Source: Thermodesulfobacteriota bacterium
GTDB taxonomy: Bacteria; Desulfobacterota; QYQD01
Assembly: GCA_031082315.1 (NCBI GenBank)
Contig: JAVHLC010000011.1
Location: 35,117-99,116, forward strand
Direction of reading: 5' to 3'
Length of the DNA stretch: 64,000 nucleotides
A program made the translations under genes and the position numbers. Of the stretch, positions 1 through 58,509 are shown in pieces (position 1 is the stretch's first letter; each line of letters opens with the position of its first letter). The notes below the pieces were generated by a model. The model was not told the DNA's origin, ran no database searches, and was given only the letters and a program-made list of their open reading frames with translations.

Positions 1-635
1 GGGAGGATATATACCGTGAAGCGCGGCGGAAAGGGGTGCTGTTCGTCCGCTACGGCCTTGAGAATAAGCCGCTGGTTGAGGAAGTCGATGGCGAACTCAG
101 GGTTACGGTGACTGACCATGTACTGGGGAGGCCGCTGGTCATCAGGCCTGATTTCATCACCCTGATGACCGCCATCATTCCGTCCGGCCACAAAGAACTG
201 GCGAAAGCCTTCAAGGTCCCTACGAACGCGGAGGGATTCTTCTTCGAAGCGCACATGAAGCTGCGCCCGGTGGACTTTGTCACTGAAGGCCTGTTCGTCT
301 GCGGACTGGCACACTACCCTAAACCCATAGATGAAACCATTGCTCAGGCCCAGGCTGTAGCCGCTAGGGCCATGACTATTTTGTCCAAAGATGAGACCAT
401 TGCGGGCGGGATGGTGGCCGAGGTGGACCAGGAGAACTGCGCGGCCTGCCTGACCTGTGTCCGTACCTGTCCTTACCACGTTCCGTTTATTAACCGCCAC
501 GGAGTGTCCGAGATCGATGCTGCGAAATGCCAGGGATGTGGATGTTGCGCATCTGAATGCCCTGCGGGCGCGATAACGCTGCACCACTTTACGGATGAGG
601 AGATTGCGGCGAAGGTGGGGGCCCTGTTTAAATAA
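1..635 (+). CDS. hdrA: Heterodisulfide reductase subunit A (HdrA)-like flavoprotein, C-terminal part (5' end outside window)
   Basis: The frame is open from the window start through the listed ORF 36..635. The C-terminal 4Fe-4S ferredoxin motifs CAACLTCVRTCP and CQGCGCCASECP are typical of the HdrA C-terminus. It lies immediately upstream of mvhD. Confidence 0.7.
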   Translation, partial: EDIYREARRKGVLFVRYGLENKPLVEEVDGELRVTVTDHVLGRPLVIRPDFITLMTAIIPSGHKELAKAFKVPTNAEGFFFEAHMKLRPVDFVTEGLFVCGLAHYPKPIDETIAQAQAVAARAMTILSKDETIAGGMVAEVDQENCAACLTCVRTCPYHVPFINRHGVSEIDAAKCQGCGCCASECPAGAITLHHFTDEEIAAKVGALFK

Positions 636-677: not shown

Positions 678-1118
678 ATGTCTGAGAACTTTGAACCACG
701 CATTGTAGCCTTTTGTTGCCAGTATTGTTCGTATTCGGCGGCAGATCTGGCAGGCTCTATGAGGCTTTCCTATCCACCCAATGTAAAGGTGGTGCTCGTC
801 CCGTGTACAGGCCGTGTCGATCCGCTCCATATCCTGAGAACGATTGAGAATGGTGCGGATGGCGTCTGCGTGGCTGGTTGCCTGGAAGGAGACTGTCATT
901 TTCTGGAGGGGAATTTCAAGGCCAAGAAGCGGGTGGCCTACGTGCAGAGAATTCTGAGCGAGGCCGGCGTAGAGGGCGCGCGGGTGAGGATGTTCAATAT
1001 CGCGGCCTCGGATGGGCCGGGTTTTGCTGAGGCCGCCAGGATAATGACCGAGACGATCAGGGCGTTGGGTCCAAACCCCCTGTCGATAAAGACCGAGAAG
1101 ATGTCTGAGGAGTTATAG
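678..1118 (+). CDS. mvhD: Methyl-viologen-reducing hydrogenase delta subunit (MvhD/FlpD family)
   Basis: 146 aa with a CCQYC...PCTGRVD...GCLEGDCHF pattern characteristic of MvhD. Has an RBS, and sits in the hdrA-mvhD arrangement. Confidence 0.75.
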   Translation: MSENFEPRIVAFCCQYCSYSAADLAGSMRLSYPPNVKVVLVPCTGRVDPLHILRTIENGADGVCVAGCLEGDCHFLEGNFKAKKRVAYVQRILSEAGVEGARVRMFNIAASDGPGFAEAARIMTETIRALGPNPLSIKTEKMSEEL

Positions 1119-1126
1119 GTGTCATA

Positions 1127-1801
1127 ATGATTATCGCAGAACGGAAGCCGATTAAAGAATTGCTTGAAATGCTTGCCGGGCACGACCGGGTTCTCCTCGT
1201 GGGATGTAAGGGGTGCGTGACCGTGTGTAATGCGGGCGGGGTAAGAGAGGTCGGTGTACTGGCCTCAGCCCTCCGTATCGCCCGGAGGCGGCAGGGGAGA
1301 CCGATCGAGATTGATGAAATGACGCTGGACCGGCAGTGTGAGCCGGAGTTTATCTCCTGGCTGGAGGAACCCTTGCGGGAAAATGGCTATACAGCGGTTA
1401 TGTCTGCGGCCTGCAGTGTAGGACCGCAATACATAGCGGAACGGTTTGACAATGTGGCCGTTATGCCGGCATTGAACACCAAGTTCATCGGGGGAACGCT
1501 TGAGCACGGGGTCTGGGCCGAGTTTTGCCGGGCGTGTGGTAATTGCGGGATACACAATTTTGGAGGCCTATGCCCTATTACCCGGTGTTCCAAGGGACTC
1601 TTACATGGTCCGTGCGCGGGATCGTCGGGGGGTAAATGTGAGGTGCGCCCGGAAGTAGATTGCATATGGCATCTCATTTATACGCGCATGAAGAATCTCG
1701 GCCAGGTCGATAAACTCAAGGCCCTGAAACCGGCCAAGAACTGGTCCGGCTACTGGAGCGGTGGCGTGCGCAGGGTTGTGCGGGAGGACTTAACTCTATG
1801 A
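1127..1801 (+). CDS. metV: MetV, a Cys-rich Fe-S/zinc-ribbon protein associated with methylene-THF reductase
   Basis: 224 aa with multiple Cys clusters (CKGCVTVCN, CRACGNCG, CPITRCSKGLLHGPCAGS). Its stop overlaps the metF start (ATGA at 1798). Confidence 0.65.
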   Translation: MIIAERKPIKELLEMLAGHDRVLLVGCKGCVTVCNAGGVREVGVLASALRIARRRQGRPIEIDEMTLDRQCEPEFISWLEEPLRENGYTAVMSAACSVGPQYIAERFDNVAVMPALNTKFIGGTLEHGVWAEFCRACGNCGIHNFGGLCPITRCSKGLLHGPCAGSSGGKCEVRPEVDCIWHLIYTRMKNLGQVDKLKALKPAKNWSGYWSGGVRRVVREDLTL

Positions 1802-2724
1802 AGGCAGGAAGCAACCTCGAAAGGCTCTTGAAAAGCGGTCAATTTACGATCACTGCCGAATTTGTCCCGCCCGCGACGGGAGACCGGGGGTTAATTGAAC
1901 GGCAGGCCCGTTACTTTAAAGGTCATGTGGATGCCGTAAGCGTGGCGGACAATATGGGCGCCGTGGTAGGTACGGCGAGCTGTGCGGTATCCAAGGCGCT
2001 CCTGGACCTGGGTCTGGAACCGATCATGTCTTTGGTCACACGTGACCGGAACCGCATCGCCCTGCAAAGTGACCTCTTGGGGGCCTCGCTCCTGGGCATT
2101 CGAAATGTCTTCTGTACCACCGGCGACCATCAGAAATTTGGAGATCACCCTGAGGCCCTGAACGTCTATGATATCGACTCCGTGCAACTCGTGAATGCGG
2201 TGAGAGGACTGTCCGACAGCGGGAAACTGCTGGGAGGGGCGGTGTGTGATAAGGCGGGGTCATTCTTCGTAGGCGCGGCAGCCAACCCGTTCGGTGATCC
2301 GGCCGATCTTATGATCCTCCGCCTGGGTCAAAAAGTGAGGGCTGGAGCGGATTTTATTCAGTCCCAACCTGTTTTTGATCTGGAGAAGTTCGGGCATTGG
2401 GTGCAACTGGCGAGAGAAGAAGGCCTTATTGAAAAGTGCTTCATCCTGGCTACGGTAATGCCGCTTCGGTCGGCGCGTGAAGCGCGGGCAATCAATGAGA
2501 GAAGACGGGGTATCGAGGTCTCTAAAGAAATTATTGCCCGGCTGGAAGGCGTGCCGGAGCCGGAGCAGGCGCGGGAAGGGCTTAGAATCTGTGCCGAGCA
2601 GATTCAGGCCCTCAAAGAGATGAAAGGTGTTCAGGGTGTTCATATCATGAGTGCGGGGCGGGAAGAGGTGATCCCTGAACTAATTAAGGAAAGCGGCCTG
2701 GAGACGGCACGAGCAAGGGACTAG
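1798..2724 (+). CDS. metF: 5,10-methylenetetrahydrofolate reductase
   Basis: 308 aa. The N-terminal FTITAEFVPP and the overall profile match MetF. Translationally coupled to metV. Confidence 0.8.
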   Translation: MKAGSNLERLLKSGQFTITAEFVPPATGDRGLIERQARYFKGHVDAVSVADNMGAVVGTASCAVSKALLDLGLEPIMSLVTRDRNRIALQSDLLGASLLGIRNVFCTTGDHQKFGDHPEALNVYDIDSVQLVNAVRGLSDSGKLLGGAVCDKAGSFFVGAAANPFGDPADLMILRLGQKVRAGADFIQSQPVFDLEKFGHWVQLAREEGLIEKCFILATVMPLRSAREARAINERRRGIEVSKEIIARLEGVPEPEQAREGLRICAEQIQALKEMKGVQGVHIMSAGREEVIPELIKESGLETARARD

Positions 2725-2765
2725 CCGTACCGGGAACATTTAGCCGGCGGGAGGATTTTTACCGG

Positions 2766-4016
2766 ATGTCTCAACCAATTGTCATAGGAAAACGTAAATC
2801 CAGATTCAAGGAACTGGCGCAGGCCGCGATCCCTGGAGGGGGCAACCTGGATCTCTGCCTCACTTGCAGTTCTTGTGTCAATGGGTGCCCGGCCTCAGGC
2901 ATCAGCGATATGGACCCCAGGAAGTTCCTGAGGATGGTGCTCCTCGGACTGGACGAAGAGGTTCTCCAGACTCCCTGGATCTGGTGGTGTTCTATGTGCC
3001 AGAGGTGCAGGCGTGCCTGTCCCATGGGCGTGGATATTGGAGCGTTGGTGTTCATGGCCCGTCAGCAATGGTCGCGGGAAAATACACCAAAAGGGATTCA
3101 GAAGTCATGTGACTTGCACCTCGAGTTTGGTAACAGCACGGGAATTCGCAGGGAAGATTGGGTTTCACTTTGTGCGGAGCTGGCTGAGGAGACCAGACAG
3201 CAGGAAGAGGACTGGAAGGATTTGCCGGCTCCCATGGATAAAAAAGGGGCTGGGTATTATCTCAACCAGAACGCCAAAGAACCCACTGTCGAACCTGAGG
3301 AGATGATACCCTTGTGGAAGATACTCCATGAGGTGGGCATTGATTGGACGTATTCATCCGAACAATGGGATGCCGTGAATTACTGTATGTTTTCCGGGGA
3401 TGACCGGGACTGGGAGGCGGTAGTCAGAAGACAGTCCGAAATAGTGAACGACCTGGGCTGTAAGACGCTTATAAATACCGAGTGAGGCCACGCATTTTAC
3501 GCGGTCCAGGCTGGACTGCAGAGATTCAATATCCCTCATAACTGGAAGTTTGAGAGTATAATCACCCTGTACGCCGCATGGATCCGTGATGGCAGTCTCG
3601 TGGTAGATCCGTCATGGAATAAAGAAGGCATTAAAGTGACCTGCCAGGACCCCTGTAACCTGGTACGAAAGGGTCTGGGTGACAGCGTGGCGGATGACCT
3701 GCGTTTTGTCATCAAACATGTGGCAGGCGAAGAGAATTTTGTGGATATGTGGCCGAACAAATCCAATAATTACTGCTGCGGCGGCGGCGGCGGTTATCTC
3801 CAGTCAGGATTTGTCGAGAAACGCCGGGCCTTTGGAAGAATTAAATTTGACCAGATACAGGCCACCGGCGCTGATATCGTGGTGACGCCCTGTCATAATT
3901 GCCGCTCGCAGATAACGGATATAGGCCAGGTGTACGGCGGCAAGTATCAGACTGTACATCTGTGGAGCCTGATCGTTAAGGCGATGGTCCGCAAGTCCAC
4001 GGCAACACCCGGCTAA
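2766..4016 (+). CDS. HdrD/HdrCB-like Fe-S oxidoreductase with two ferredoxin motifs and a CCG domain; putative selenoprotein with an in-frame UGA at 3483-3485. The alternative is two separate genes, hdrC-like 2766..3485 and hdrB-like 3600..4016
   Basis: ORFs 2766..3485 and 3600..4016 are in the same frame. The only stop between them is the TGA at 3483, and I translated 3486-3599 with no further stop. The N-terminal part carries CLTCSSCVNGCP and CSMCQRCRRACP (HdrC-like). The C-terminal part carries CCGGGGG and CHNCRSQ (HdrB CCG-domain-like). Confidence 0.5.
3501..3519 (+). promoter_or_regulatory. Candidate SECIS-like hairpin 16 nt downstream of the in-frame UGA
   Basis: gcgGTCC[AGGCT]GGACtgc folds as a 7-bp stem (including one G-U pair) with a 5-nt G/U-containing apical loop. 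Its spacing from the UGA is compatible with a bacterial SECIS element. Confidence 0.3.
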
Positions 4017-4296
4017 ACCTTACTTAGCTCCCATCCAAAAACCATGCCCATCCCATTGTAGGAGCACCTTCCAGGTGCGAACAAATGCCCGTCGCAGCAG
4101 GATGCTGCTCCTACGGCGGCAGGCAGGCCTAATACGGCAAGGGGGATTTTGGGATTTCCGGATGAAAACCGCTTAATTTTCACTTTCCAAAATCTCTTTG
4201 TTCATGTCATAATCAACGGCGATGTCTTAAAGTTAATCTGAATAAGGGTCGAAAAGACTTAGGAGATCGTCTTTTGATGCACAAGGAGGCGCCTTT

Positions 4297-18989: not shown

Positions 18990-20085
18990 GGGGACGTCCA
19001 TAAATAAATAAATTGACACCAGATTAATATAATGCTATTTAACCGTTCATGCCAAGATTAGCCCGCCTGGATGCGCCCGGCGTATTACATCATGTTATTA
19101 TCCGAGGAATAGAGCGTCGAAACATATTTAAAGATAATAAAGATCGCGATAATTTTCTGGGGCGACTGGCTATCCTCCTGCCTGAAACCCAAACGGCCTG
19201 TTACGCATGGGCACTGTTGCCTAACCATGCCCATTTCCTGTTTCAAACCGGTAAGGTAGGTCTCTCCACTCTAATGCGAAGACTGCTTACCGGATATGCA
19301 GTCAGCTTTAACCGCAGGTACAATCGGCACGGGCAGCTTTTCCAAAACCGCTACAAATCGATTATCTGCCAGGAAGACGTTTACTTACAGGAATTGGTTC
19401 GCTATATACATTTAAATCCATTAAGGGCAGGGTTGGTTTCTGAACTGGGTGATCTTAACAAATATAAATACTGTGGACATAGCGTGTTGATGGGCAAGGT
19501 TAGGCGCCCATGGCAGGATACAAAATATGTACTGTCCTATTTTGGCAAGAATATTGGTGAGGCGAGAAGGAGTTACCTTTCCTATATAGAAGAAGCTCGG
19601 GATCAAGGCCGTCGGCCGGAACTGATGAGCGGGGGATTAATTCGAAGTCTTGGTGGGTGGGCAGAGGTAAAAAAGAGGCGGTTAAGAGGCCGGGATCGTG
19701 TTAAGGGAGATCAGCGCATATTGGGGGAGACCGATTTTGTAATGGAGATACTGGCGGAAGCTGATGAAAAGTATAATCGTTATTATGAACTGAAAAGCCT
19801 GGGATACGATTTAAAGACCGTGGAACGAAAAGTTAGTGAGATATACCGGATAGGACCGGAGGATATCTATAACAAAGGCCGGCAAAAGACGCGGGTAGAA
19901 GCCAGGAGTTTGTTTTGTTATTGGGCGGTGCGGGAACTAGGCTATGGGTTGACGGATTTGGCCAGACGTCTTGGTATGACCCAGCCAGCCGTGGGATATG
20001 CTGTAAGCCGGGGAGAGCGTATAGCCAAACAAAATAACCATCATCTGATTAAATGACTATTATTTACTTATTTATGGACGTCCCC
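18990..20085 (+). mobile_element. IS200-like / REP-associated tyrosine transposase (RAYT) element with 24-bp terminal inverted repeats
   Basis: The left end GGGGACGTCCATAAATAAATAAAT (18990-19013) and the reverse complement of the right end GGGGACGTCCATAAATAAGTAAAT (20062-20085) match at 23 of 24 positions. They enclose a single transposase gene. Confidence 0.7.
19049..20056 (+). CDS. Y1 (HuH) tyrosine transposase, IS200/RAYT family, with a C-terminal DnaA-C-like HTH extension
   Basis: 335 aa. Carries an HuH motif (PNHAHFLF) and the conserved Y-region. The C-terminal ~90 aa is HTH-like. Confidence 0.7.
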   Translation: MPRLARLDAPGVLHHVIIRGIERRNIFKDNKDRDNFLGRLAILLPETQTACYAWALLPNHAHFLFQTGKVGLSTLMRRLLTGYAVSFNRRYNRHGQLFQNRYKSIICQEDVYLQELVRYIHLNPLRAGLVSELGDLNKYKYCGHSVLMGKVRRPWQDTKYVLSYFGKNIGEARRSYLSYIEEARDQGRRPELMSGGLIRSLGGWAEVKKRRLRGRDRVKGDQRILGETDFVMEILAEADEKYNRYYELKSLGYDLKTVERKVSEIYRIGPEDIYNKGRQKTRVEARSLFCYWAVRELGYGLTDLARRLGMTQPAVGYAVSRGERIAKQNNHHLIK

Positions 20086-28215: not shown

Positions 28216-28694
28216 ACGTTCATGCAGAACGTGCTTGACGAATTGTGAATAAGCAGGACATCCTCTTGAGGCGGACGGCAGTTACTCTATCTCCCGAACC
28301 CCGGAGCTTCGTCACGTTGTGCTGACTTGCCCGGAGACTGGGCCTGGTATGCCGTTTACTCGCCACGTCCTGTGGCTCGCCCTTCGGGCCAGCAAAGCTG
28401 TTCAAGATCGTTCATCCTGACGATTTTGTCTGTTCGTCGGCTCATAGCTTTGCGCTCCGGGTTACCGCTCCCTACGGTCGCTCTCGCCGTTGGCTCGTGG
28501 TCTCCGCTGCGCTTCGAACCCTTCGACGGTCTCTCACGATTCCGCCCTTGCCTTCGGCTGGTACTTCTGCTAACGTATCACTAACTAGGCAGGGTTCACC
28601 CTGTTAAATTCCCCCCAGGGAACCCTATTTAACAGGGTGAACGTACAGGGGGGACTTACACCCCTTAAGCTCACGCCCATGCCGGGCGTACACA
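28216..28694 (+). repeat. Large structured ORF-free element, copy 2 (~480 nt)
   Basis: See copy 1. Has the same terminal hairpins and the 16-bp stem but lacks the 29-nt insert. Confidence 0.8.
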
Positions 28695-29566: not shown

Positions 29567-31075
29567 ATGAAGGAGGACAAAAAGAGGTTAACCACAGCTT
29601 TCGGTATCCCAGTGGCTGACGACCAGAACAGTCTCACCGCAGGTGAACGTGGGCCTATACTCATGCAGGATATTCATTTGCTGGAGAAACTGGCACACTT
29701 CGACCGTGAGCGTATTCCCGAACGAGTAGTGCACGCAAAAGGAGCGGGGGCGCACGGCTATTTTGAGGTTACTACTGATGTGACCAGGTACACCAAAGCG
29801 AGATTTCTTTCGAAAGTGGGCAAGAGTACCGAGGTCTTCGTACGGTTTTCCACTGTTGGTGGTGAGCGGGGTTCGGCCGATGCTGCACGAGATCCACGCG
29901 GCTTTGCAGTCAAATTCTACACGGAGGAAGGCAATTATGACTTAGTGGGGAACAATACACCCGTATTCTTTATCCGCGATCCGCTCAAGTTTCCTGATTT
30001 CATCCACACCCAAAAGCGGATCCCTGCGAACAATCTACCAGATCCGGACATGTTTTGGGACTTTTTATCCCTGACACCCGAATCCATTCATCAAGTTACA
30101 ATCCTTTTCTCCGACAGGGGAACACCAGGCGCCTATCGGCACATGAACGGCTATAGCAGCCACACGTTCAAGTGGTACAATGACAAGGGGGAATACTTCT
30201 GGGTACAGTACCATTTCAAAACGGATCAGGGCATCAAGAATCTGACCCGGGAGGAAGCGAAGAGAATGTGCGGCGAGGATCCGAATCACGCCACCCGTGA
30301 CCTGTATGAAGCTATCGAACGGGGAGACTATCCTTCCTGGACTCTTGAGATGCAGATTCTGACACCGGAGAAGGCCAAGGATTTTCCTTGGGATATCTTT
30401 GACATCACCAAAGTCTGGCCGCATGGAGAAGTCCCTCCTATCAAGATTGGAAAGCTGGTTCTGAACCGCAACCCGGTTAATTATTTTGCAGAAGTGGAAC
30501 AGGCGGCTTTCTGCCCGGGAAACGTGGTTCCCGGTATCGCCATCTCACCGGATAAGATGCTGCAAGCAAGGGTTTTTTCCTACCATGATACCCACCTTCA
30601 CAGACTTGGCCCCAACTATCACCTGATTCCAGTCAATGCGCCCAAATGTGCCCAGGAAAATAGTTACCAACGTGACGGATTCATGCGTGTTGACACCAAC
30701 GGAGGTGGTGGACCCAACTACTGGCCCAATAGCTTCGGTGGACCAGAGCCGGACCTGACGGCAGGCGAGCCTCCTTTTGAGGTTTCCGGCCAGGCTGGTC
30801 GTTACCCATTCACCTATCCAAATGACGACTTTGTGCAGGCTGGTACCCTTTACCGTAAAGTCATGTCAGACAAAGATCGGGAGCACCTTACCGGGAACAT
30901 TGTGGATCACCTGGCTAAGGCGCAGAAACGCATCCAAATGCGCCAAACCGCCTTGTTCTATAAGGCAGACGAGGAGTACGGCCGACGCGTAGCCGAAGGA
31001 TTAGGTCTCGATGTGAATGAAATCAAGCGATTGGCGGATATGTCTCATGAAGAAAGAGCGAAGGCTACAGAATAG
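29567..31075 (+). CDS. Monofunctional heme catalase
   Basis: 502 aa. Carries the catalase proximal signature [25 protein letters not shown], a distal His, and a heme-binding Tyr region. Confidence 0.85.
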
Positions 31076-56545: not shown

Positions 56546-56694
56546 GTTTTCATCCGGAAAACCAAGTTTTCCGGATGGAGCAGTCAGCACTCAGCTATCA
56601 GCATTCAGCTTAACATAATGTTTGTCCTACTCTTTTGCTGACAGCTGATGGCTGAAAGCGTGAAGCCGGAAACAGTAGTTTCCGGATGAAAACT
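56546..56694. repeat. B-family MITE-like element, copy B2 (complete, with ~16-bp terminal inverted repeats)
   Basis: The left end GTTTTCATCCGGAAAAC and the reverse complement of the right end GTTTTCATCCGGAAAC match. The right TIR supplies the ATG at 56686 for the listed AOR ORF. Confidence 0.75.
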
Positions 56695-56730
56695 GGATTG
56701 ATTTTTAGCAGGGCAGGACGGGACGAAATG

Positions 56731-58509
56731 GCTGGTTATTGGAAGAAGCTTCTTAGGATAAATCTTACCAGTGGGAAAACCGAGACAGAAGAGATACCTG
56801 AGGAGATTATCACCAAATACCTTGGCGCCAAGGGTATCGGAGCCTACTACTTTATAAAAGGCCTTAAAAAGGGCATCGACCCCCTTTCTCCTGAAAACAG
56901 GATTGTCCTGGCTACAGGGCCTTTTCAGGGTACGGAAATTCTATCCAGTGGCCGTTTCGCGGTTATTACCAAGTCTCCCCTTACCGGCATATTTCTGGAT
57001 AGCTATAGCGGGGGGCTGTTTGGCCCCGGTCTCAAATACTGCGGTTTTGATCTGGCGATTATCGAAGGCAAAACAAAAAAGCCTGTATATATCTGCATAA
57101 CCAATGGGCGGGCCCAGATAAAGGATGCTGCGCATCTATGGGGAAGGACCACGGCTGAAACAGAAAAGATCATAAGGTCAGCGGAAGGCGAGGATACGAA
57201 GGTAGTTTCCATAGGCGTGGCCGGAGAAAACGGGGCGCTTTTCTCCTGTCTGATCAGTGACAGGCGCCGCGCCGCGGGCCGGGGGGGAGCAGGGGCGGTC
57301 TTTGGGGCGAAGAACCTTAAGGCCGTAGCGGTAAACGGTACGCTGGCTATCCCGGTTCATGATGCTAAAAAGATAAAGGAATTAAATCGAAGGGCTGTGC
57401 AGGCCGTGGCACAGAGGCGTAAAGATAACGCCGGCCTTTATCTTTACGGTACCTCATCAGTATTGGAATATTCCCACAGGAAAGACCGCTTACCGGTCCT
57501 CAATTTTCAAAAAGGTGAGTGGGAATACTATGAGGGACTGGATGGGGAGACCATCCATCGGGAGAATAAGGTTAAATTCAACCCCTGTTGTCCCTGTCCG
57601 ATTGCCTGTGGCGGTATTCTTACCTCTCAAGGTAAAGACCGGCCGGAGTATGAGACCCTGGCCATGCTGGGGGCAAACTGCGGCCTGAAAAGATATGAGA
57701 CCGTGATTAAGGCCAATGAGCTATGTGATCTTTACGGCCTGGATACGATTTCGACCGGCAATGTCATCGCCTTTGCCATGGAATGTTCGGAAAAAGGGAT
57801 AATAAAAGAAAAGATCAAGTTCGGCGATGAAACGAGGCTTTTGTCGTTGATTGAGGAGATTGCTTATCGCAGGGGCATAGGCGGGCAGTTGGGCTTGGGC
57901 GCCAAAAGATTAGCCGGGATGTGGGGACACGGTTCTCGTGATTTTGCCATGCATGTGAAAGGTCTTGAGATGCCGGCCTGGAATACACGGGGACAGTTAG
58001 GCCAGGGGCTGGCCTATATGACCGCTGATATCGGGGCCAGCCACTTACGCGATGGCCTTGCGGAGCATAGTCCACCTAATAAACCGGCCATGGAGGTTGT
58101 CAAGGAGCTGGTGGAGGCCCAAAACGAGACTACCGCCAGAGATAACTACATAATATGTGCTTTTGCCCTGTACACTGTCTCACACGAGATGTGCCTTGAT
58201 TATTTTAAGGCGGCAACGGGTTTGGGATTAAATAAAGAGAAGATTCAGGAGATAGGCAATCGGATATTCACCCTTATTCGAAGCGTTAATTGCGGGGAGG
58301 GGATAACGCGCAAGGACGATAGCCTCCCGGCCAGGGCCATGAATGAACCCCTGCCTTCTGGAGTGGCCAAAGGCTGTAAGGCGTTTGTTAGTGAGGAAGA
58401 TAAAGAGCAGTGTCTGAATAGATACTATGAACTGCGCGACTGGGACAATAATGGTATTCCCAAAAAGGAGACACTTGAGAAATTAGGGATAGAGAGACTG
58501 ACCCGGTGA
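56731..58509 (+). CDS. Tungsten-containing aldehyde:ferredoxin oxidoreductase family protein
   Basis: MAGYWKKLLRINL matches the AOR N-terminus (MYGNWGRFIRVNL in the P. furiosus AOR). Also has an AFV-like pterin-binding region and the Cys motifs. The listed ORF starts at 56686, inside the MITE. Confidence 0.75.
   Translation, partial: AGYWKKLLRINLTSGKTETEEIPEEIITKYLGAKGIGAYYFIKGLKKGIDPLSPENRIVLATGPFQGTEILSSGRFAVITKSPLTGIFLDSYSGGLFGPGLKYCGFDLAIIEGKTKKPVYICITNGRAQIKDAAHLWGRTTAETEKIIRSAEGEDTKVVSIGVAGENGALFSCLISDRRRAAGRGGAGAVFGAKNLKAVAVNGTLAIPVHDAKKIKELNRRAVQAVAQRRKDNAGLYLYGTSSVLEYSHRKDRLPVLNFQKGEWEYYEGLDGETIHRENKVKFNPCCPCPIACGGILTSQGKDRPEYETLAMLGANCGLKRYETVIKANELCDLYGLDTISTGNVIAFAMECSEKGIIKEKIKFGDETRLLSLIEEIAYRRGIGGQLGLGAKRLAGMWGHGSRDFAMHVKGLEMPAWNTRGQLGQGLAYMTADIGASHLRDGLAEHSPPNKPAMEVVKELVEAQNETTARDNYIICAFALYTVSHEMCLDYFKAATGLGLNKEKIQEIGNRIFTLIRSVNCGEGITRKDDSLPARAMNEPLPSGVAKGCKAFVSEEDKEQCLNRYYELRDWDNNGIPKKETLEKLGIERLTR

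Follow-up and report, generated by a model that had tools for sequence, protein, structure and literature searches.

Iron-sulfur oxidoreductases of the heterodisulfide reductase (Hdr) kind already figure among the bacterial selenoproteins. The table of 25 bacterial selenoprotein families in Zhang et al. 2006 (PMC1794560) includes 'Fe-S oxidoreductase (GlpC)', and a 2026 review lists an Fe-S oxidoreductase (GlpC)-like family, PTHR43551, with the selenocysteine (Sec) motif 'UGH' (PMC13188914). The genome paper of D. autotrophicum describes a Sec-containing hdrD4 together with a full selABCD set (PMC2702500), and a study of marine deltaproteobacterial metagenome-assembled genomes (MAGs) counts Fe-S oxidoreductase among the selenoproteins (PMC8318568). 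Here we consider a gene of this type at positions 2766 to 4016 of a 64,000-nucleotide stretch of a Thermodesulfobacteriota genome (contig JAVHLC010000011.1), the whole of which is called the window below. We hold it to be very probable that this is a single HdrD-like gene whose in-frame UGA is read as Sec with the help of a selenocysteine insertion sequence (SECIS), and that it is the last gene of an hdrA-mvhD-metV-metF-hdrD operon. Both the family and its Sec motif have stood in the catalogues since 2006; the difference from the textbook operon lies in the partnership with metV and metF.

How does this gene compare with the systems described so far? With the GlpC-like selenoprotein family it shares the U-G-H motif (N-T-E-U-G-H in the window), two 4Fe-4S motifs (Pfam Fer4_17/Fer4_8) combined with a CCG domain, a range within the Desulfobacterota, and adjoining hdrA and mvhD/frhD genes. 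The typical operon of that family, glpC-hdrA-frhD-frhG-frhA, encodes hydrogenase subunits, whereas the window has metV/metF instead and the gene stands last rather than first. Like DsrK, HmcF and TmcB, the product has one complete CCG motif and a lone conserved position in T/GECGH, a Cys in those proteins and the predicted Sec site here; unlike them, it scores far under their model cut-offs, would carry Sec for Cys, and is encoded next to soluble partners (HdrA, MvhD, MetFV) rather than a membrane partner. HdrB and HdrC of the methanogen HdrABC complex (PDB 5ODC, 8RVU, 7BKB) resemble it in the HdrC-like N-terminus, the HdrB fold and the five-Cys second CCG repeat, but they are separate chains with two complete five-Cys CCG motifs, whereas the window protein is fused and complete in its second repeat alone. 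The best overall structural match is the soluble domain of mycobacterial EtfD (PDB 9OJN; PMC13083937), whose C581-x-H583 is in register with the predicted U240-G-H242. EtfD, however, is membrane-anchored and contains b heme and a linear [3Fe-4S] cluster in repeat 1, whereas the window protein has Ala243 at the fourth ligand position and no membrane domain. Finally, the Moorella-type HdrABC-MvhD-MetFV cluster, as summarised in PMC5736913, likewise combines hdrA, mvhD, metV and metF with an HdrCB unit, but the HdrCB unit of the window is of the single-CCG, DsrK-like kind and is predicted to contain Sec, and the gene order differs.

A single gene interrupted by one in-frame UGA

On the forward strand of the window, one frame extends from ATG 2766 to TAA 4014-4016, with the TGA at 3483-3485 as its sole internal stop; the 38 codons from 3486 to 3599 are free of stops. 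A listing of open reading frames (ORFs) gives two pieces, 2766..3485 and 3600..4016, and a preliminary description of this DNA had proposed that the two share a frame and are split by this TGA only, which translation of the frame confirms. The merged product has 416 residues counting the predicted Sec240. Its Pfam matches, a 4Fe-4S dicluster region at residues 28-90 and a CCG domain at residues 291-383, bear out the two ferredoxin motifs followed by a CCG-type domain that had been read from the sequence earlier. According to a scan of the whole window, TGA 3483 is the only TGA that links two long same-frame segments on a truly coding strand. Other same-frame TGA junctions in the window were considered as a possible second selenoprotein and rejected, all of them being antisense to real genes or ordinary gene ends.

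A protein search over 5.8 billion proteins returned 1,161 homologs at E < 1e-10, from which the top 120 were taken. Nearly all of these are single polypeptides of 405-440 residues, and homology to them runs on in frame past the UGA, where 176 more codons align through the CCG domain. In a MAFFT alignment of the top homologs, the column of the UGA holds Cys in 119 of 119 full-length proteins, within the motif NTE[C/U]GH; E239, C240, G241 and H242 are invariant and T238 is conserved in at least 90%. The preliminary description had asked whether a Cys or Sec aligns at the UGA, and the answer is a uniform Cys. It had also named an outcome that would speak against a fused gene, namely homologs ending at the equivalent of position 3485 with an independent start thereafter. 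No such homologs turned up: a single entry is short (P0029, 239 aa, 98% identical), and this one, from a Thermodesulfobacteriota MAG, is a gene-caller truncation at the same TGA. A stored U or X residue was sought in the database homolog proteins to tell Sec from Cys forms, and as none is stored there, DNA was compared instead.

Two homologs deserve mention in their own right. A Desulfotignum phosphitoxidans protein (P0023; L003 6001-7284) bears the name 'oxidoreductase, selenocysteine-containing', yet in its DNA the NTE-C-GH codon is TGC and no UGA interrupts the reading frame, so that the name was discarded as evidence for Sec at residue 240. The closest Cys-type ortholog (P0001) is encoded on a 6.7-kb contig of a Latescibacterota MAG (L244 3280-6626), where two FlpD/MvhD-family genes precede it; that contig carries no metF, and on its opposite strand lies an AIRS/AIRS_C gene resembling selD, cut near the contig end.

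The TGA is kept in a close relative and recurs widely. A relative about 96% identical, i.e., about 4% diverged, has it at the same place (GCA_049323255.1; L001 10001-11251), and contigs of this relative from the NCBI MAG and from an independent Logan assembly (L001, L002) show the same operon and the same TGA. The 36 nucleotides after the TGA are identical to those of the window. Across the gene, 50 codons differ between the two, 36 of them synonymously and without any insertion or deletion, and the stretch between the TGA and GTG 3600 accounts for four synonymous and two non-synonymous changes. In the public annotation of the relative, the gene appears as two pieces, a '4Fe-4S dicluster domain-containing protein' of 239 aa and a CCG ORF of 138 aa. 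We then searched one genome per species (GTDB) for the pattern N-T-E-TGA-G-H with two downstream constraints, for which a hand estimate puts the chance matches in the genome collection at a few to roughly ten. The TGA stands at this codon in at least 120 species-level genomes. The matches listed are nearly all from Desulfobacterota, including the cultured Desulfopila aestuarii DSM 18488 and Desulfoprunum benzoelyticum DSM 28570; 120 of 120 listed are true orthologs, and, unless the contig ends first, their frame typically runs without a stop through about 245-280 codons ahead of the TGA and about 170-197 codons beyond it. In all these genomes, annotation that takes the TGA as a stop would mis-call the gene.

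The conserved hairpin downstream of the UGA

The hairpin GCGGUCCA-GGC-UGGACUGC occupies positions 3501-3519, its first base being the 16th nucleotide past the UGA. Both its presence and its starting point had been recognised in the preliminary description; the 7-bp stem with a 5-nucleotide loop drawn there, however, has to be corrected to 8 bp with a 3-nucleotide loop, folding and covariation adding a closing A-U pair. The published criteria for bacterial SECIS (bSECIS) elements (PMC13188914) call for an apical loop of 3-9 nucleotides on an upper stem of 4-16 bp, for a G in the first two loop positions, usually as G[G/U], for 16-37 nucleotides between the UGA and the apical loop, and for a minimum free energy (MFE) of at most -7.5 kcal/mol. 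The hairpin agrees with all four of them and thereby has the bacterial SECIS fold that the earlier description had wished to see checked: it combines a 3-nucleotide loop, GGC, with an 8-bp stem, the distance is 23 nucleotides, in a register common to all orthologs compared, and the MFE is -11.0 kcal/mol for the 19-nucleotide hairpin and -12.5 kcal/mol for a 27-nucleotide segment.

The comparison of UGA-containing (Sec-type) and Cys-type genes is more telling than the fold of any one of them. Throughout 116 distinct Sec-type sequences, positions 19-26 pair with positions 30-37 (counted from the U of UGA) in a constant register, and the loop is GGC, GGA, GGU, GUC, GUU or GUA only, i.e., G(G/U)N. 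For a Cys-type control, the same search pattern with TGY was applied to metagenome contigs, which yielded 114 true orthologs and 6 chance matches. In the fixed register, the Sec-type sequences form 7.6 of the 8 pairs and reach a local MFE of -11.2 kcal/mol, compared with 3.9 of 8 and -5.1 kcal/mol for 100 Cys-type orthologs (Mann-Whitney p = 2e-29). The hairpin is specific to the UGA forms and absent from the 100 Cys-type orthologs, and in the nearest Cys ortholog (82% identical) it is disrupted (-4.4 vs -12.5 kcal/mol). Within the Sec-type alignment, 94.9% of cells are paired, as against 16-44% in slid registers; compensatory changes on both sides occur in five of the eight pairs (106 cells), and the covariation score of 0.314, compared with 0.141 for shuffles, was matched by none of 500 shuffles.

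The RNA element also leaves its mark on the protein. Across the 216 Sec-type and Cys-type orthologs compared over codons 247-251 (window 3504-3518), the Sec-type genes always encode Val247 by GUC and Gly250 only by GGA or GGG. Residue 248 is Trp in 75% of the Cys-type proteins, whereas Sec-type genes always have a CNG codon there (for Arg, Leu or Gln) and never one for Trp. The closing pair of the stem joins the second base of codon 248 (CAG, CGG or CUG, i.e., Q, R or L) to the wobble base of codon 249, and therefore a non-synonymous site covaries with a synonymous one. With Trp248 of the Cys-type giving way to Arg, Leu or Gln, each of which varies together with the wobble position of codon 249, the family provides a clean example of an RNA element constraining a protein. 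It also offers a remedy for the annotation of such genes, which could combine a family model allowing U at the UGA column with the signature NNGUCC-N-G(G/U)N-N'-GGACNN at +19 from the U of the UGA. Rfam, at its gathering threshold, reports no SECIS-type family in the window, which says nothing either way.

Fold of the product and alternative readings of the UGA

Where in the protein does the UGA fall? Among NCBIfam models, the best matches are HmcF (193 bits, cut-off 750), TmcB (183, cut-off 735) and DsrK (135, cut-off 400), all far under the equivalog cut-offs; the HdrB and HdrC models TIGR03288 and TIGR03290 reach 23 of 345 and 54 of 160 bits, and so no model attains its cut-off for this subfamily. 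Of the label HdrD/GlpC-like given earlier, the first half holds, whereas the closest curated relatives are the single-CCG proteins HmcF, TmcB and DsrK and not GlpC proper. When solved structures are searched by sequence, HdrC chains match the N-terminus (E down to 2e-18) and HdrB matches the C-terminal CCG repeat. An AlphaFold2 model, built for the 82%-identical Cys ortholog rather than for the window protein, forms one fold (predicted local distance difference test, pLDDT, 89.6; predicted template-modelling score, pTM, 0.89). Foldseek aligns it with the soluble part of mycobacterial EtfD (query-normalised template-modelling score, TMq, 0.72) and with the whole two-repeat HdrB over about 290 columns. 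Judged by this model, the two-repeat HdrB fold maps to roughly the C-terminal two-thirds of the protein, with the UGA in the first CCG repeat, which is degenerate. Because the fold alignment spans the whole two-repeat HdrB, the UGA is placed inside the HdrB-like module and not at the HdrC/HdrB border; the preliminary description, which had put it at the junction of the two parts, is not borne out here.

Of the five canonical ligand positions, the first CCG repeat has retained two, C207 and U240, whereas the second has retained all five, and therefore two noncubane clusters are not expected. From weak alignments, U240 would be the first Cys of the CxxC of repeat 1, equivalent to HdrB Cys78 and EtfD Cys581. 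An hhalign comparison of the first with the second repeat is not significant and a phmmer match to HdrB repeat 1 reaches 3 bits, so that both offer hints of the register only; the secondary structure of the model, with strand, Cys and helix succeeding each other in both repeats, agrees with it. The motif C581-x-H583-C584 has been described in EtfD, where the noncubane cluster of repeat 2 has His583 as a ligand (PMC13083937), and the invariant H242 of the present family stands in the same register as this His583. According to Barbosa et al. (PMC10861901), DsrK, HmcF and TmcB have one CCG motif plus a strictly conserved Cys of the lost cluster, in T/GECGH, which was proposed to be catalytic. Read in this light, T-E-U-G-H is the same motif with a predicted Sec in place of the proposed catalytic Cys. 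By analogy with these enzymes, we infer that Sec240 is a redox-active residue beside a noncubane [4Fe-4S] cluster.

The interruption of the frame might be explained in other ways. Two genuine genes, an HdrC-like one ending at the TGA (2766..3485) and an HdrB-like one starting at GTG 3600, are what gene callers annotate in the MAG of the close relative (239 and 138 aa), and the C and B subunits of canonical Hdr are indeed separate. Yet all homologs conserve the protein sequence of the 38 codons that separate the TGA from GTG 3600, where change is mostly synonymous; GTG 3600 has no Shine-Dalgarno sequence comparable to that of ATG 2766; the split would halve the two-repeat HdrB fold; Cys-type homologs are all single polypeptides; and the conserved, covarying hairpin would be left unexplained. 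We consider this arrangement extremely unlikely. Even less can be said for a premature stop that arose in a pseudogene or through an error of sequencing or assembly. A lone in-frame stop does resemble a point error or an inactivating mutation, but two other assemblies, both of a relative about 4% diverged, share this TGA, at least 120 species-level genomes have it at the same codon, and the sequence downstream of it is without further stop or frameshift and has changed mainly by synonymous substitution. The relative and the recurrence of the TGA effectively refute this explanation.

Alternatively, the UGA might be recoded to a residue other than Sec, either by low-level near-cognate readthrough or by SECIS/SelB-type insertion of Cys through a specialised tRNA, which Mukai and co-workers reportedly found in some Deltaproteobacteria. 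The inserted amino acid cannot be read from sequence, all non-UGA homologs have Cys, and the lineages involved are Desulfobacterota, all of which would be compatible with such recoding. On the other hand, the family has been recorded as a selenoprotein family in organisms whose selABCD set is complete, such as D. autotrophicum with its hdrD4, TGA is the normal stop of many window genes, and a costly, protein-constraining SECIS that served merely to insert Cys would be less parsimonious than a TGY codon. We thus regard recoding to another residue as very unlikely. A global reassignment of UGA was also considered and rejected, about half of the window ORFs ending in TGA.

Some observations also weigh against Sec insertion at this codon, or against the role that we assign to residue 240. 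Neither selA, selB or selD nor a gene for tRNA-Sec was found within the 64-kb window or the related loci, the rest of the genome lying outside this search: a Pfam scan of the 30 larger window ORFs gave no SelA, SelB or SelD, the window yielded no tRNA at all, and none of 60 related loci yielded tRNA-Sec. The 78-nucleotide region 3483-3560 folds no better than shuffles (z = -0.43), and therefore the fixed-register comparative analysis was used instead; an equally stable SECIS-type hairpin follows 1.0% of the other 2,069 TGA trinucleotides of the window. The hairpin alone is only moderately unusual, and it is the comparative data that carry the argument. The mapping of Sec240 onto HdrB Cys78 rests on an hhalign E-value of 0.16, a 3-bit HMMER stretch, correspondence of folds and motif register rather than on coordinates, and for the TECGH cysteine, too, catalysis is no more than a published proposal. 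Sec insertion at the UGA, for its part, would follow from the SECIS model. With the Cys/Sec pair, the recurrence of the TGA and the conserved SECIS taken together, the candidate Sec-containing HdrD-like oxidoreductase of the preliminary description nonetheless emerges well supported.

Operon context, possible chemistry and other features of the window

The gene is preceded by co-oriented, adjacent hdrA, mvhD, metV and metF genes (Table 1). The same order is found in both assemblies of the relative (L001, L002), where the full-length hdrA-like gene encodes 1020 aa, and in several other genomes. Downstream, the neighbour is a glycosyltransferase gene, and the immediate neighbours include neither a membrane cytochrome b partner subunit nor hydrogenase genes.

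Table 1. Coordinates of the HdrD-like gene, its elements and its operon neighbours in the window
Feature	Position	Strand	Evidence or remark
hdrA-like gene, 3' part, running off the left window edge	1..635	+	frame open from window start; NCBIfam HdrA/HdrA2 profile positions ~435-650; Pfam Fer4
mvhD (FlpD family)	678..1118	+	Pfam PF02662 FlpD, E = 5e-48; NCBIfam VhuD, 147.8 bits
metV (MTHFR C-terminal-like, DUF5981)	1127..1801	+	Pfam PF12225, E = 6.9e-34
metF (methylenetetrahydrofolate reductase)	1798..2724	+	Pfam PF02219 MTHFR, E = 8.7e-36
Shine-Dalgarno sequence GGAGG	2750..2754	+	11 nucleotides before ATG 2766
HdrD-like (fused HdrC/HdrB-like) gene, very probably encoding a selenoprotein	2766..4016	+	one frame with one internal TGA; homologs single polypeptides of 405-440 aa; one confident fold matching EtfD, HdrB and HdrC
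Two CxxCxxCxxxC [4Fe-4S] motifs, HdrC-like (C31/34/37/41, C75/78/81/85)	2856..3020	+	Cys invariant; solved HdrC chains match, E = 1e-14 to 1e-18
T-E-U-G-H motif (aa 238-242), the T/GECGH motif with predicted Sec for Cys	3477..3491	+	conservation in homologs; motif from PMC10861901
Predicted Sec-UGA codon (residue 240)	3483..3485	+	frame; Cys/Sec pair; TGA kept in close relative and at least 120 genomes
Bacterial SECIS hairpin, stem 3501-3508/3512-3519, apical loop GGC 3509-3511	3501..3519	+	folding, covariation, codon constraint
Complete CCG domain (C297, C337, C338, C376, C379), predicted noncubane [4Fe-4S] site	3636..3914	+	Pfam PF02754, E = 1.1e-11; matches second CCG repeat of solved HdrB

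All five Cys of the complete CCG domain are conserved in 98-100% of homologs. A gene set for a MetFV linked to Hdr is known from Moorella-type Wood-Ljungdahl systems, and fused HdrCB from marine Chloroflexi and some sulfate reducers (PMC5736913). Sec-type orthologs elsewhere occur in both hydrogenase-type and metV/metF-type contexts, in varying gene orders that include hdrA-mvhD-metV-metF-hdrD, hdrA-mvhD-hdrD-metV-metF and hdrD-metF. By tblastn, metF lies near 41 of the 120 Sec-type loci listed (L004-L123) and near 2 of 114 Cys-type loci (L124-L243; Fisher p = 8e-12), a difference that may reflect lineage, given that the two sets come from different collections and different subfamilies. Directly upstream of the gene, metF is found in 19 of 90 Sec-type cases and in 1 of 75 Cys-type cases.

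How might such a protein work? Sec is nearly always the redox-active catalytic residue of the protein that contains it, and its position is informative because of this. Here it would mark, in a subunit tied to a methylenetetrahydrofolate reductase, the T/GECGH cysteine that has been proposed as catalytic in DsrK, HmcF and TmcB. We envisage that the last gene of hdrA-mvhD-metV-metF-hdrD gives rise to a soluble HdrC-like domain fused to an HdrB-like module and that, following the SECIS model, the mRNA hairpin at 3501-3519 would recruit SelB with Sec-tRNASec to the ribosome, where UGA 3483-3485 would be read as Sec. Beside the noncubane [4Fe-4S] cluster of the second CCG repeat, Sec240 might then serve as the nucleophile of a thiol/disulfide-type half-reaction, and this half-reaction might be coupled through HdrA, with its flavin, and MvhD to the interconversion of methylene- and methyl-tetrahydrofolate by MetFV in the Wood-Ljungdahl pathway. 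Both the catalytic role of Sec240 and the nature of the co-substrate are suggested here by analogy. The predicted Sec at the lone T/GECGH position and the enrichment of Sec-type genes near metF therefore make it conceivable that the Hdr-linked methylenetetrahydrofolate reductase of Wood-Ljungdahl-using Desulfobacterota performs genuine thiol/disulfide (or trisulfide) chemistry with a co-substrate, residue 240 being the nucleophile, although we put this forward tentatively and would give it less than even weight. If it were true, the Sec would amount to natural evidence for a catalytic T/GECGH cysteine in DsrK-type enzymes and would provide a handle on the second redox partner of MetFV-Hdr complexes.

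Several further features were noted around the operon and elsewhere in the window. In the relative (L001 1-7867, beyond the reach of the window), two genes with Glu_synthase domains and an 876-aa gene with a GXGXG domain lie upstream of the 1020-aa HdrA, an arrangement that recalls the HdrL/glutamate-synthase-like fusions of D. autotrophicum. Just 3' of the stop of the HdrD-like gene, a stable imperfect inverted repeat spans 4058-4114 (23-nucleotide arms, -40.8 kcal/mol, z = -3.74), and no T-run follows. The window has this repeat only once, and the ~96%-identical relative lacks it, the proximal intergenic sequence there being unrelated. The repeat may represent a terminator or a small inserted element. 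On the reverse strand, positions 28276-28357 match Rfam group-II-D1D4-3 with 35.1 bits (gathering score 32) over model positions 59-145 only, and are probably a fragment of a group II intron. The forward strand also encodes an IS200-like Y1 transposase with a DnaA-type helix-turn-helix (19049-20056), an aldehyde:ferredoxin oxidoreductase (56686-58509) and a haem catalase (29567-31075), the last of which is unexpected beside the Wood-Ljungdahl/Hdr genes of an anaerobe.

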